A model generated the notes under the pieces. It had not been told where the DNA came from and did not search any database. It was given only the letters and a program-made list of their open reading frames with translations. From Afipia sp. (GTDB lineage Bacteria; Pseudomonadota; Alphaproteobacteria; Rhizobiales; Xanthobacteraceae), in NCBI GenBank assembly GCA_016201045.1, contig JACQDM010000001.1, positions 605,617 through 669,616 on the forward strand: DNA of 64,000 nucleotides. The letters are read 5' to 3'. Shown here piece by piece: positions 3 to 38,995 of this stretch. The position numbers were made by a program, and so were the translations under genes. The number at the start of each line of letters is the position of its first letter. The stretch's first letter is position 1.

Positions 3-506
3 GGCTGGCAATTCGGCTGGCTCGACGTGCCGGGCCTCATTCGCAATTGCCCTCACTCTTACGAGTATCCGCTGGTAGACCGCGATCCGGTCGATCGCTG
101 GACTTTCGGCAATGTCACGCTGATGGGCGATGCGGCGCACCCGATGTACCCGATCGGCTCCAATGGCGCGTCGCAGGCCATTCTCGATGCGCGCGTCATC
201 ACCCGCGAAATTCTCAACCACGGCGAAACACCGGCGGCGTTGCTGGCCTACGAGGCCGAGCGCCGTCCCGCCACCACCGAACTTGTGATGCTGAACCGCC
301 GCAACGGGCCCGAACAAGTCATGCAGATGGTTGAGGAGCGCGCGCCTGACGGCTTCAAGGTTGTGACCGATGTGCTGTCGCAGAAGGAACTCGAAGACAT
401 CGCCAACAACTACAAACGTGTCGCCGGATTTCAGGTCGACGCGCTCAACGCCAAACCGCCGATTGTGCCGACGCTGGAAACCCCAACGCTGTCGAGCGCG
501 GGTTAA
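3..506 (+). CDS. FAD-dependent monooxygenase, C-terminal part (5' end outside the window)
   Basis: Open frame from the window edge; contains VTLMGDAAHPMYPIGSNGASQAILDA, the GDAAH..P..G.G motif of class A flavoprotein monooxygenases. Confidence 0.85.
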   Translation, partial: GWQFGWLDVPGLIRNCPHSYEYPLVDRDPVDRWTFGNVTLMGDAAHPMYPIGSNGASQAILDARVITREILNHGETPAALLAYEAERRPATTELVMLNRRNGPEQVMQMVEERAPDGFKVVTDVLSQKELEDIANNYKRVAGFQVDALNAKPPIVPTLETPTLSSAG

Positions 507-12812: not shown

Positions 12813-12879
12813 GGGGACTTCATTCGCCGACGCGTGTTGGTTGCAGATTCAAATTTCAAACAGCCACGTTGATTTGCTC

Positions 12880-13347
12880 CCGCGCCCGAAGCGCAGGTTG
12901 AGCTTTTGGTCTCGCCCCTGAAAACGAGGGGCATTGCAGTTAGCCCCTCAAAAGAAGAGGGGCATTGCGCGCCGGAAGGCGCAACTTGCATCGTCTCGCT
13001 TCCCGCATGCAGCCTGCGAAAGCCACGTCCGGAAAGCGCGTCGCCTTGCGGCGCGCCAAGCGCACACAAGTTTACGCCGTTTGCGCAAACCTGAATGCTG
13101 CGGGACTTTTGGCGAAGGGATCGCTCTTCCGGGTGCGGGATCCGAACACCTTTTGGATGTTCGTTCATCCCGGCGGATTTCGCCGCCGTTCGCCCGCACC
13201 GCGTGCAGCCACCGAAGGCAGGGCCACGTAGTTGGCCCGGTCGGTGACCCTTCGCCTCACGGACGTGAGTTTGCGAAACTCACGCGCGCGCACCGCATCC
13301 TGCTCCACTTCACGACGCCTCTAGAAGCGCCCCTCGTGAGCAGGGTG
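12880..13347 (-). ncRNA. Candidate large structured non-coding RNA or non-autonomous repeat element
   Basis: More than 10 stems found by eye, including nested long-range helices; no credible ORF; strong promoter directly upstream. Boundaries approximate. Confidence 0.5.
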
Positions 13348-13352
13348 ATAGG

Positions 13353-13381
13353 AATATAATCATATTACGAAAGAAGTCAAG
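13353..13381 (-). promoter_or_regulatory. Strong sigma70-type promoter pointing into the structured element
   Basis: CTTGACT ... TATATT with a 16-nt spacer, close to the rhizobial consensus CTTGAC-N17-CTATAT; AATAT-N4-ATATT palindrome overlaps the -10. Confidence 0.7.
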
Positions 13382-13558: not shown

Positions 13559-13596
13559 ATTTGTCATCACCGGGCTTGTCCCGGTGATGACAAATG
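13559..13596. repeat. Single REP-like hairpin (GTCATCACCGGGCTTGTCCCGGTGATGAC)
   Basis: Perfect stem with a 5-nt loop; same sequence family as 14731-14853 and 38914-38995. Confidence 0.8.
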
Positions 13597-13618: not shown

Positions 13619-14014
13619 CTACTTTCCTGTTGGCCAGATCGAAACAACTCCTAAGATTAAGCCGATCACGCCCAGACCCAACGAAATAAAGCTTAGATGC
13701 GCTGCAACTCGGTTGGTTGGGTTAGAGACGCTCCAAAGCCAAACGAAGTTCTCCCACCAATGTATGGCCTTGAAAGTAAACTCCTCTTTCTCGCCATCCG
13801 TCACCTGTAGCCGACGGCGCATTTCATCATCCATCCAAATTCCGCTGCGATCATTCTTTGGCGTATTGCGGGCAACGGCGAGTGTGGTGCCGTTGCTCGA
13901 AGTCACTCTAAAAATTTTCCCAGCTAAGATCGGAGAGCGGTGCGAGGTATGAACTCGCACCATGTCTTCAAAAATATCTTCTTTGTTAGCTTGATGAACG
14001 AGTAGACGAACCAT
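13619..14014 (-). CDS. Low-GC orphan membrane-anchored protein (131 aa)
   Basis: ATG 5 nt after the stop of the upstream hydrolase; C-terminal hydrophobic helix FISLGLGVIGLILGVVSIW; about 50% GC in ~180 nt counted by hand. Confidence 0.7.
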   Translation of the reverse strand: MVRLLVHQANKEDIFEDMVRVHTSHRSPILAGKIFRVTSSNGTTLAVARNTPKNDRSGIWMDDEMRRRLQVTDGEKEEFTFKAIHWWENFVWLWSVSNPTNRVAAHLSFISLGLGVIGLILGVVSIWPTGK

Positions 14015-14019
14015 CTCGT

Positions 14020-14730: not shown

Positions 14731-14853
14731 GTCATGCCCGGACATAGCCGTCTGAAGGACGGCGTCGCTTCGCTCGCCTATGTGCCGGGCATCCCGATAA
14801 CTTGAATACAGTGTTCTCTTGGTCGGGATCGCCGGGACAAGCCCGGCGATGAC
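14731..14853. repeat. REP/RIME-like doublet with an internal hairpin insert
   Basis: GTCATGCCCGGACATAGCCGTCTGAAGGACGGC...ATGTGCCGGGCATCCCGA ... TCGGGATCGCCGGGACAAGCCCGGCGATGAC. Confidence 0.8.
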
Positions 14854-14874
14854 ATAACGGTTGTAGCGCGGACC

Positions 14875-23696: not shown

Positions 23697-24473
23697 ATGC
23701 GTAAGGTTTCTCTTCTTGTCGTTGCGGCAGCAAGTTTCGCGTTCGCCGGAGCTGCGTCGGCCGCCGACATGGCGGCCAAGCCGGTCTACACCAAGGCTCC
23801 GGTCGCTCCGGTTTGGTCCTGGACCGGATCGTATATCGGCGGTTACGTCGGCGGTGCGTGGGCGGATCCGTGCACGAGCGTTCCAGTCAACGGTGGCGGC
23901 GTTCCTTTGTTCGGCGGCGGACCTGCTTGCTACAACATGGGCTCGAGCGTCATCGGCGGTTACACCGGCGGTTACAACTGGCAGTTCGCACCGAACTGGC
24001 TGGTCGGTTACGAAGGTGAAACCGGCTATATGAAATTGAAGGGCACCGGATTCTATCCCGGCGCTCCGACCGTTTTCTCGACGACCGAAACCGGAAGTCT
24101 CTACAGCGTGTGGGCCGCACGCTTCGGTTACGTGATGGACAAGTCGCTGATCTACGTGAAGGGCGGCGCCGCGCTCGCGCAGTTTGAAAACACCGTGTTC
24201 AACGGTGCAGGAACGGTGTTCCTTAACGCCAAGAAATATGAGTGGACCTACGCGGTCGGCGGCGGCTGGGAATACGCCTTCGATCCGAAGTGGAGCCTGA
24301 AAGCCGAATATCTGTATCTCGGTTTCGACAGCAATACGCTCAACCAGACTGGCATCTCGAATGGCTTGCGCGTTGGCGTGGTTCAGGAGTTCGCTGGCAC
24401 GACGCTTCCTGGCATCCACACGGTCAAGGTCGGCCTGAACTACAAGTGGGACTGGTTCAGCCTGCTGCGTTAA
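23697..24473 (+). CDS. Outer membrane beta-barrel protein (Omp25/Omp31/RopB-like), copy 1
   Basis: Signal peptide ending ASA-AD, YTKAP..WSWTGSYIG, GGGWEYAF, KAEYLY. Confidence 0.9.
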   Translation: MRKVSLLVVAAASFAFAGAASAADMAAKPVYTKAPVAPVWSWTGSYIGGYVGGAWADPCTSVPVNGGGVPLFGGGPACYNMGSSVIGGYTGGYNWQFAPNWLVGYEGETGYMKLKGTGFYPGAPTVFSTTETGSLYSVWAARFGYVMDKSLIYVKGGAALAQFENTVFNGAGTVFLNAKKYEWTYAVGGGWEYAFDPKWSLKAEYLYLGFDSNTLNQTGISNGLRVGVVQEFAGTTLPGIHTVKVGLNYKWDWFSLLR

Positions 24474-24499
24474 GCGCTGTTCAGCTCCTTCGATCATTG

Positions 24500-24533
24500 A
24501 AAGCCCCCGGACCCTGTTCCGGGGGTTTTTGTT
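24500..24533 (+). terminator. Rho-independent terminator
   Basis: CCCCGGA-N-TCCGGGG followed by TTTTT. Confidence 0.85.
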
Positions 24534-24568
24534 GAAGGTATCCAGATACTTAAATCTTGAGCCTCGCT

Positions 24569-24598
24569 GTTACCGATACAGCACACCGTCTGGATAAC
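24569..24598 (+). promoter_or_regulatory. Conserved upstream motif of OMP gene 2
   Basis: GTTACCgATACAgCACAC....GATAAC, paralogous to 23551-23580. Confidence 0.6.
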
Positions 24599-24713
24599 GG
24601 GGCGCCCGCTCCGGGATTATCGGGGAATCGGTTGAGCTTGCAGGAAGGGGCAAGTATTTCTGGTGCCATAGATGCGGCGGAATCGCGCCGCCAAGGAATT
24701 TTGGGGGCTTCCG

Positions 24714-25460
24714 ATGCGTAAGATTTCACTCCTCGTTGCTGCCGCGGCGAGCCTTGCTTTCGCGGGTGCCGCGTCCGCAGCCGACATGGCTCGGCCCGTT
24801 TACACGAAGGCTGCTCCAATGGTCCCGGTCTGGTCCTGGACCGGCTCATACATCGGCGGCTACGTCGGCGGTGCGTTCAGCACGAAAAACTACACCAACA
24901 CTGACCCCTTCAACGTGAGCGCCACGCCCGGCTACAGCATGAGCTCGAGCTTCATCGGCGGCTACACCGGCGGCTACAACTACCAGTTCTCACCGAACTG
25001 GCTGATCGGTTACGAAGGTGAAACCGGCTACATCCACATGAAGGGTACGGGTCTCTCGGCTGTTGCCCCCGCCTTCGGTACCGCCGAAATCGGCAACTAT
25101 TATTCCACTTGGACGGCGCGCCTTGGCTACGTGATGGACAAGTCGCTGATCTACGCAAAGGGCGGCGTTGTCTTGGCTCGCTTCGACACCGGCATCTACT
25201 CGGGCGTGCCTGCTGCCGGCGGCTGGACCGGAGCATTCACCAGTCACAAGTACGAGTTCGGCTATGCAGTCGGCGGCGGCTGGGAATATGCCTTCGATCC
25301 GAAGTGGAGCGTCAAGGCCGAATACGAGTACCTCGGCTTCGATCGCGACTTCACCTACAACAATGGTGCGGGCGTTGCTTCGACCACCCATTTCGGCGGC
25401 ATCCACACCGGCAAGGTCGGCCTGAACTACAAGTGGGATTGGTTCAGCATGCTGCGCTAA
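24714..25460 (+). CDS. Outer membrane beta-barrel protein (Omp25/Omp31/RopB-like), copy 2
   Basis: Tandem paralog of 23697-24473 with the same strand motifs and C-terminus. Confidence 0.9.
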   Translation: MRKISLLVAAAASLAFAGAASAADMARPVYTKAAPMVPVWSWTGSYIGGYVGGAFSTKNYTNTDPFNVSATPGYSMSSSFIGGYTGGYNYQFSPNWLIGYEGETGYIHMKGTGLSAVAPAFGTAEIGNYYSTWTARLGYVMDKSLIYAKGGVVLARFDTGIYSGVPAAGGWTGAFTSHKYEFGYAVGGGWEYAFDPKWSVKAEYEYLGFDRDFTYNNGAGVASTTHFGGIHTGKVGLNYKWDWFSMLR

Positions 25461-25486
25461 GCGCTGCTGAATTTCTCAGATCGTCG

Positions 25487-25519
25487 AAACCCCGGACCCT
25501 CGGTCCGGGGTTTTTGTTT
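25487..25519 (+). terminator. Rho-independent terminator
   Basis: AAACCCCGGACC-ctc-GGTCCGGGGTTT followed by a T-tract. Confidence 0.85.
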
Positions 25520-38913: not shown

Positions 38914-38995
38914 GTCATCGCCGGGCTTGACCCGGTGATCCATCTAAAAAGAGGCTATTAAGAAGATGGATTGCCGGGTCAAGCCCGGCAATGAC
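38914..38995. repeat. REP/RIME-like inverted doublet
   Basis: GTCATCGCCGGGCTTGACCCGGTGATCCATCT ... AGATGGATTGCCGGGTCAAGCCCGGCAATGAC terminal inverted repeats. Confidence 0.9.

Follow-up and report, generated by a model that had tools for sequence, protein, structure and literature searches.

The window considered here is a 64-kb stretch (64,000 nt) of an Afipia sp. assembly (contig JACQDM010000001.1), and the subject of this analysis is a structured RNA element in the intergenic space between a dienelactone-hydrolase gene (14694-14020, minus strand, Pfam DLH), which forms the 5' edge of that space, and trpE(G) (12620-10455, minus strand, 721 amino acids), which forms its 3' edge. On the minus strand the space holds, in order, a low-GC open reading frame (ORF), palindromes of the repetitive extragenic palindromic (REP) type, the element, the trp promoter, a leader peptide and an attenuator terminator. 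A hidden Markov model (HMM) of the element finds one copy in the window. This copy, all parts of which lie on the minus strand, comprises a promoter and a predicted RNA body of ~500 nt (12846..13346), delimited by nhmmer/HMM boundaries, the conservation profile and end alignments, with 12846 as the last base conserved family-wide (..UUGAAUC). With high confidence, the element belongs to a real multi-copy family of structured RNAs. The best explanation of the region, held with middling confidence, is that it is one gene of an Afipia-lineage family whose unit consists of a promoter and a structured noncoding RNA (ncRNA) of ~450-520 nt, a stable RNA that would act in trans. An earlier note on this DNA, called here the preliminary description, had proposed a candidate large structured ncRNA with its own promoter at this place; covariation, strand-specific G-U pairs and the conservation of the promoter within the unit bear this out.

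In the comparison with dinucleotide-shuffled controls that the preliminary description had suggested, the window RNA folds far better than the controls: the 471 nt from 13350 to 12880 have a minimum free energy of -243.3 kcal/mol, as against -200.9 ± 6.5 in 100 shuffles, none of which (0/100) folds as well (z = -6.48). A consensus structure of 99 pairs in 17 helices was obtained with RNAalifold from an alignment of 47 copies. Canonical pairs fill 97.9% of the cells in these 99 pairs, compared with 40-52% in controls whose partner columns were shifted by 1-3 positions. Compensatory double changes appear in 33 pairs (199 cells), whereas the shifted controls have 5-15 such pairs and no more than 30 cells, and none of 500 column shuffles reaches any of the observed pairing measures. 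The pairs with the highest mutual information all belong to the consensus structure, and a mutual-information screen of the alignment revealed no convincing further pseudoknots. Nearly all of the helices that had earlier been picked out by eye recur in this consensus, backed by pair counts, and covariation, which had been named as a check, is present among the homologues. Peripheral hairpins vary in presence between the aligned copies, as in other large RNAs.

The same pairs reveal which strand is under selection. They contain 566 G-U cells vs. 40 A-C cells (14:1), which indicates that the fold is selected on the minus-strand RNA only and not as a DNA palindrome. This bears on the view that the region is a DNA-level mosaic of the REP, BIME or ERIC kind with no RNA function, its structure being a by-product of palindromic DNA. 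The element is indeed embedded among REPs, has the same preference for convergent genes, and similarity between copies often continues into the flanking REP arrays. However, selection on one strand, compensatory changes in long-range nested helices, a near-consensus promoter that is conserved with constant spacing to the first helix, and a size and branching unlike those of any REP or BIME make such a mosaic very doubtful.

From 5' to 3', the RNA is composed of a domain with helices P1 and H2, a closing helix, a covarying hairpin, a multi-branch core, a near-palindromic domain, one or two GCCCCUC hairpins, a CUCGCGC hairpin, variable hairpins, and an AU-rich tail. In the 5' domain (13299..13344), P1 is formed by 13344-13338 with 13305-13299 and encloses H2. 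Double changes occur in 6 of the 11 pairs of P1, including a full swap from CCUGUUC/GGAGCAGG to CUUCAUUC/GGAAUGAAG. The closing helix, which the preliminary description had missed, joins GCGGU (13292..13296) to GCUGU (12860..12864) and is 100% paired in the 47 copies (13296-13292/12864-12860). Its variation is confined to C-G/U-G and G-U/A-U exchanges with no change on both sides, so covariation does not test this helix. The hairpin domain P4-P5 (helices 4 and 5, ..GUGAGUUUCGCAAACUCAC.., 13257..13290) has the highest mutual information, as illustrated by pair 84-92, which is UA in 22 copies, GC in 23 and CG in two; the earlier-listed 13284-64 hairpin recurs here in the consensus with pair-count support. 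The multi-branch core P6-P13 (helices 6-13, 13111..13256) is closed by 13256-48 with 13119-11. It holds an invariant hairpin, GGGCCA-ACUACG-UGGCCC (13238-13221) in the window and GGGCCA-ACUAYG-UGGCYC in the family form; the invariant junction CCCGGAAG and a hairpin of the UUCG type also belong to the core. The invariant hairpin was also read as a tmRNA-like ANYVAL tag, and this reading was rejected: the sequence lies within a stem-loop, there is no stop codon, and ARAGORN is negative.

Downstream of the core, several hairpins listed earlier stand only in part. The helix 13090-83/13077-70 is present in the window as an inserted hairpin (CAUUCAGGUUUGCGCAAACGGCGUAAACUUGUGUGCGCU, 13062..13095), but it is optional and occurs in only six of the 47 copies (the window, L004, L095, L109, L186 and L110). 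Domain P14-P15 (helices 14 and 15, 12967..13057) admits two folds. In the first, a 15-bp long-range helix (GGCGCGCCGCAAGGCG.. with ..CGCCUUCCGGCGCGC) carries an internal hairpin; in the second, GNRA-capped and UNNC-capped hairpins make up a four-way junction. The GNRA hairpin noticed earlier falls in this domain: its loop is always GNRA, but the assignment is ambiguous, since the variable bases of the loop also co-vary with the 3' strand of the 15-bp helix (GAAA with UUUC). Because the domain is near-palindromic, the HMM also gives self-hits on the reverse strand. Most copies then carry a single GCCCCUC..GAGGGGC hairpin. The tandem pair in the window (12963-12943 and 12932-12914) does reflect a local duplication, as had been proposed, but the second hairpin occurs only in the window and in L084, and a paralogue contig of the source metagenome skips 12877-12957. 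An alternative pairing of the 5' GAGGGGC motif with the 3' GCCCCUC strand had been suggested as well; it finds no support, since in L109 the 3' hairpin has changed in a compensatory way (GCCACUC/GAGUGGGC) and the 5' motif has not, which supports the local hairpin and not a 5'-3' pseudoknot. Hairpin P17, CCUGCGC-UUCG-GGCGCGG (12879..12897), shows double changes in three of its seven pairs.

H2 contains the invariant GAGGGGCGC (13335-13327), and its apex in the window is a 6-nt palindrome, UCUAGA (13325-13320). Among ~95 copies the apex is CUCGAG in 60, UCUAGA in 20, UCAUGA in 11 and UCCGGA in two, with one non-palindromic exception. The inner four bases of the apex cannot pair within the hairpin. 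Self-complementarity that is kept in this manner is the pattern expected for a kissing pairing between two identical RNAs, and the H2 loop may serve such a pairing.

The promoter that had been proposed, TTGACT-N16-TATATT on the minus strand, was found at 13353..13380, with the -35 box TTGACT at 13380-13375 and the -10 box TATATT at 13358-13353. It matches the consensus at 10 of 12 positions and is the only sigma-70-like site that a consensus scan detects in 2 kb. The -10 box lies inside a near-palindrome, GGAATATATTCC in the family consensus and GATTATATTCC in the window copy. Promoters of this type, termed type A, precede 46 copies as TTGAC(A/T/G)-16..18-TAnnnT, with a perfect TTGACA in 41 of the 46, and the homology of this group starts exactly at the -35 box. 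About 40 further copies (type B) have the module AACATTTCGTGAT-GGGG(8-nt variable loop)CCCC-GCGCTCTGAACC..TTATGTTCGG, in which the TAnnnT -10 box is kept and the -35 match is absent; this suggests a promoter that would depend on an activator or an alternative sigma factor. In 1.3 Mb of loci, both 5' modules are found solely next to the element. The distance from the -10 box to the invariant GAGGGG is a constant 16-18 nt, so that transcription is predicted to begin with the first base of helix P1. In the window the RNA would start at ~13346, ~7 nt after the -10 box. In one sub-family (L083, L098, L114 and L157) the -35 box is directly preceded by a further palindrome, GGAATAAATTCC, while GGAATATATTCC surrounds the -10 box; the two palindromes may be paired binding sites for a putative regulator.

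At the 3' end, family-wide conservation stops at ..GGCTGTTTGAAAATTGAATC (window 12865-12846). The last part of this segment is the AU-rich single-stranded tail UUGAAAUUUGAAUC (12846..12859), within which GCTGTTTGAAAATTGAATC is nearly invariant; at the level of the alignment the tail reads UUGAAAAUUGAAUC. About 40 of 62 copies continue with ~45 nt and then a REP hairpin, which may form the 3' end of the RNA. The window copy has no REP hairpin after the tail, and the trp promoter follows instead.

As regards transcription, the case is made by the conserved promoter and the strand-specific structural selection and not by direct evidence, so the RNA itself is a predicted product. Assembled contigs from metatranscriptome and RNA-labelled runs do contain members of the family.

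To define the range of the family, a 21-mer from the invariant core hairpin (CGGGCCAACTAYGTGGCYCTG) was scanned against species-representative genomes and matched in more than 117 places. About 110 copies were confirmed by the HMM, all of them in Afipia or Afipia-like metagenome-assembled genomes (MAGs), and, among the matches listed, the true ones are all Afipia-like. Matches in Oscillospiraceae, Clostridiales and Streptomyces, as well as a single IMG/VR match, were discarded as coincidences in coding sequences, and blastn found no element in plasmid and phage collections. Each Afipia genome has at least 5-10 dispersed copies; counted by the exact 21-mer, there are at least nine in A. massiliensis, six in A. 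broomeae, five in A. birgiae and three in A. clevelandensis. In the groundwater metagenome from which the window comes, the core of the element reaches a depth of 74-95x vs. ~7x in the flanks (~10-13 times), and contigs of diverged paralogues are present. The preliminary description had likened the element to dispersed ~0.5-kb repeats of Bradyrhizobiaceae. Dispersal is real, but a spread across that family finds no support, as no copy was found at ~55 trpE loci of Bradyrhizobium, Rhodopseudomonas or Nitrobacter. Two contigs from marine assemblies, L096 (Colwellia assembly, 618 nt) and L175 (Maribellus assembly, 668 nt), consist almost wholly of the element; they are probably contamination, which fits the fact that Afipia is a frequent contaminant of water and reagents. 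In L094 (445-556) and L174 (5023-5134), a long variant of the element has a strong match to the Rhizobiales sRNA Atu_At1 (RF02496, 91-92 bits) as a neighbour, ~200 nt away and on the other strand.

In 61 of 85 scorable copies the gene before the element has the same orientation, and in 58 of 80 the gene behind it runs the opposite way; the typical site is therefore intergenic, between convergent genes. Several loci are syntenic across 5-8 species, and orthologous loci can carry different promoter types. Mean identity between copies is 0.87 within genomes vs. 0.78 between genomes, and nearest neighbours are genome-mates. Some pairs that are 94% identical share exactly the unit and nothing more, whereas others share the flanking REP arrays too. 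Taken together, this indicates old, positionally stable paralogues that are homogenised by gene conversion, by slow replacement or spread, or by both. Three copies in one Afipia MAG (L165, L171 and L177) are truncated at the 5' end, starting near model position 140-148, and downstream of each the same repeat follows without any difference over more than 120 nt (GAAGAATCTGCC..GTTACGAATGCGGTTTATGTTACGG..); this suggests that a larger repeated block was copied with them in it.

The RNA family is uncatalogued: neither a family in Rfam 15 nor a description in the literature searched was found. At gathering thresholds, Rfam 15 recognises only a tRNA in the window and nothing in the element. At E <= 10 over 1.5 kb, the element is matched only by a chance hit to mir-76 on the plus strand (16 bits, 13121-13181, E = 5.8). 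Eight further copies searched at E <= 5 match no bacterial RNA family; the sole overlapping hit, Six3os1_1 in L007 (26.8 bits, gathering threshold 50, E = 0.096), is also a chance match. The families without an Rfam match include HEARO, IS605-orfB, group II introns, ROOL, GOLLD, OLE and raiA, as well as 6S, RNase P, SRP, tmRNA and the Bradyrhizobium sRNAs. ARAGORN detects no tRNA or tmRNA in the element. The absence of known RNA landmarks noted earlier is therefore upheld by Rfam and ARAGORN alike, and the Rfam search that had been advised gives no identification. The element was also considered as a CsrA sponge, and this was rejected on inspection of the alignment, which shows no GGA motifs in hairpin loops. 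The Bradyrhizobium REP paper covers just the Br-REP2-type repeats that flank the element (PMC5082802).

Insertions and deletions of 1-3 nt occur inside and between the conserved helices, so no reading frame is conserved, in agreement with the earlier statement that no ORF here looks coding. That such sequences are often mis-annotated as ORFs, as was also stated, is not supported, since only three database proteins match the translation of the spurious ORF. The same observations bear on a type I toxin-antitoxin-like locus or a small-protein gene, in which a folded mRNA would hide a short ORF by means of a 5'-3' helix. The element resembles such loci in being multi-copy, chromosomal and equipped with a strong promoter, and its RNA of ~400-500 nt is closed by a 5'-3' interaction, as are hok-type mRNAs. 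Given the lack of a conserved frame, ORFs in the window copy that are not hydrophobic peptides, and the scarcity of matching database proteins, this possibility appears extremely improbable.

The trp operon downstream has its own control region on the minus strand, with a promoter whose -35 box is TTGACA (12812-12807), a leader peptide MNKPSRPARLWWRTS with two tandem Trp codons (12776-12729), and an attenuator terminator hairpin (12694-12670). The Trp_leader model RF00513 matches weakly at 12776-12665 (27.8 bits, below threshold). The element precedes the trp promoter, is separate from this feature and is not itself a trp leader. A 2-kb signal scan detected no terminator-like site between 12846 and 12812. 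Read-through from the element into the trp leader is therefore possible in the window, as a local side effect. The preliminary description had proposed an effect on trpL-trpE(G), and the element might accordingly be seen as a cis-acting trp element that works by read-through or by sensing a signal. In keeping with this, copies in four other genomes (L002, L004, L007 and L010; 75-80% identity) precede a trpL-trpE(G) that is read in their direction, as does that of the window. The operon, however, has the complete attenuation apparatus just described. Many close relatives, in a group whose TrpE is up to 92% identical to that of the window, lack the element at the trp locus, and a small gene is directly followed there by the trp promoter. 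Other places account for more than 95% of the copies, most of which point towards the 3' end of a convergent gene, and at trpE loci neither the promoter type nor the order of element and REPs is constant. A cis-acting role in the trp operon is thus highly improbable, and the link to trpL/trpE(G) is incidental.

We therefore return to the reading of the region as one of several genes for a stable, trans-acting RNA. According to this reading, RNA polymerase would start at ~13346, so that helix P1 would take in the 5' end. Stability would come from the compact body of many helices, which the 5'-GCGGY/3'-GCUGU helix closes, and the 3' end of the RNA would be formed at the AU-rich tail or at a downstream REP hairpin. 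The RNA would act in trans as a scaffold or as a component of a ribonucleoprotein, and might self-associate through the palindromic apical loop of H2 as a kissing dimer. Recombination or gene conversion between intergenic regions rich in REPs would maintain copy number and similarity, and the family would consist of slowly spreading, partly selfish genes. The element would not be a regulator of the trp operon, and read-through into trpL would be at most a by-product. A trans-acting, self-associating mechanism, which is deduced from sequence comparison, is offered tentatively. It is rather unlikely, though conceivable, that the several promoter-equipped genes represent a new class of large RNA with no described relative, either a particle that self-associates via H2 or an orphan scaffold of an effector encoded elsewhere.

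Several points weigh against this reading. No partner or target is known, and the range is narrow, whereas a host function would usually reach beyond one genus. The kissing-loop idea is thinly supported, as there are only four loop variants and the palindromes could have another cause. The depth pattern in the RNA runs can be explained by multi-copy (contaminating) DNA, and one metatranscriptome contig extends past the predicted start. Furthermore, the clustering of copies by genome, their presence or absence at the trpE locus, the sharp unit boundaries in some 94%-identical pairs, and the breaking of several assemblies inside the element would fit a mobile element too.

In that case the element would be non-autonomous, and the RNA would be needed for its own propagation. 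It could be an orphan scaffold like an omega RNA, with the variable 3' flank as a guide and a TnpB/IscB-type or other effector encoded elsewhere, or an RNA copied back into DNA by a trans-acting reverse transcriptase. Besides the genome-specific clusters of dispersed copies, the common boundaries and the variable presence at the trpE locus (it occurs there in five genomes and the site is empty in others, although REP clutter blurs the boundaries), this alternative can draw on the assembly breaks, which imply near-identical copies in some genomes, and on a conserved scaffold that ends in a fixed sequence and gives way to variable DNA; what comes after ..GAAUC on the 3' side differs between copies, frequently being GGAA.. 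and then a REP unit. The subterminal GGGG-loop-CCCC hairpin of type B, with its variable loop, and selection on RNA structure despite lineage restriction, as in HEARO/omega RNAs and group II introns, also point in this direction. On the other hand, ORF clustering within 3 kb and Pfam annotation show that no transposase, nuclease (TnpB and IscB included), reverse transcriptase or integrase recurs beside the ~110 copies, whose recurrent neighbours are only ABC ATPases (ABC_tran) and syntenic genes; the earlier proposal to look for such an adjacent gene thus led to none. The copies show neither terminal inverted repeats nor target duplications, their 5' flanks have no conserved motif, and a search of metagenomes for an empty-site allele gave none. 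In addition, the -35 box is the exact point where type-A homology sets in, many loci keep their position in 5-8 species, and Rfam gives no match to HEARO, IS605-orfB or group II introns. The mobility suggested in the preliminary description therefore finds no backing at the copies themselves, and we regard a mobile element as a realistic minority possibility.

Several other features of the window deserve mention. The low-GC ORF (13619-14017, minus strand, GC ~0.50, 132 amino acids) has a hydrophobic C-terminus and only a weak CDC48_N match. It takes the place of a gene of ~150 amino acids that follows dienelactone hydrolase in L007, L009, L010, L012, L015 and L023, and is possibly a foreign insertion. 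REP-type palindromes lie between this ORF and the element, at 13562-13588 and as an inverted pair at 13401-13428/13497-13524, and further sites of this type occur at 14826-14854 and 38914-38995. The window palindromes belong to two families, GTCGTCCCCGCGAAGGCGGGGA and GTCATCACCGGGCTTGTCCCGGTGATGAC, which resemble the Br-REP-type repeats described for Bradyrhizobium; in other genomes, too, most copies of the element have these two families at their sides. At 23776-25518 there are tandem paralogous genes of ~1 kb whose DNA is 82-86% identical, and behind both stand terminator-like hairpins that resemble one another (CCCCGGACCC..GGGGTTTTTGTT).

Few structured bacterial RNAs exceed 400 nt, and to our knowledge nearly every studied class of them has yielded unexpected biology, such as ribozymes, RNA-guided nucleases and RNA cages. 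With ~100 sequence-diverse members and strong covariation, the present family offers a ready structural model, and its hosts include cultivable Afipia species. The promoter-equipped paralogues and their two promoter modules raise questions of dosage, regulation and concerted evolution. Since Afipia is so common a contaminant, the RNA may be present, unnoticed, in many sequencing data sets. In annotation, the 0.5-kb "empty" intergenic blocks and the hypothetical ORFs inside them should be treated as an RNA gene.

Among known systems, HEARO/omega RNAs of IscB-IsrB and the TnpB reRNA are likewise large, ornate RNAs with many dispersed copies per genome. OMEGA RNAs, like the element, often have no adjacent ORF, are patchy among lineages, possess a covarying structure, and place their scaffold against a variable flank. 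The element differs from them in that it has no HEARO or IS605-orfB match even at E <= 10, no IscB, TnpB or TnpA gene lies beside any copy, and the unit includes its own sigma-70-type promoter; moreover, the 5' flank has no target-adjacent motif, and many copies are positionally stable across species. Group II introns and HYER-type RNAs share the properties of multi-copy structured RNAs of several hundred nt located near hairpins or terminators, and HYER RNAs are reported to act as homodimers. In contrast to group II introns, the element has no Rfam match to domain V/VI or D1-D4, no 5' GUGYG and no intron-encoded protein nearby, and it has its own promoter rather than being spliced from a host transcript. 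The hok/Sok mRNAs are comparable as ~400-nt RNAs from multi-copy chromosomal loci, locked by a long-distance 5'-3' helix, but the element has neither a conserved small ORF nor an evident antisense RNA gene.

REP/BIME and ERIC repeats, including Br-REP1 and Br-REP2 of Bradyrhizobium (PMC5082802), resemble the element in being dispersed, intergenic and partly position-conserved between species, and in favouring the 3' ends of genes and convergent regions; the element also physically adjoins REP units. The element is, however, ten times longer (~500 nt, 17 helices), has branched, covarying long-range helices, is under strand-specific selection and carries its own promoter, and the REPs are separate flanking units. 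As to ROOL, GOLLD, OLE and raiA, the element matches none of these Rfam families, has 5-10 or more paralogues per genome where theirs number one or few, is limited to one alphaproteobacterial genus-level lineage, and is not tied to prophages or tRNA arrays. It nevertheless shares with them a length of more than 400 nt, a multi-branch architecture, many invariant junction and loop nucleotides, and the character of a stand-alone gene. ROOL, GOLLD and OLE are reported to form multimeric assemblies, which the possible self-association of the element through its palindromic loop would resemble.

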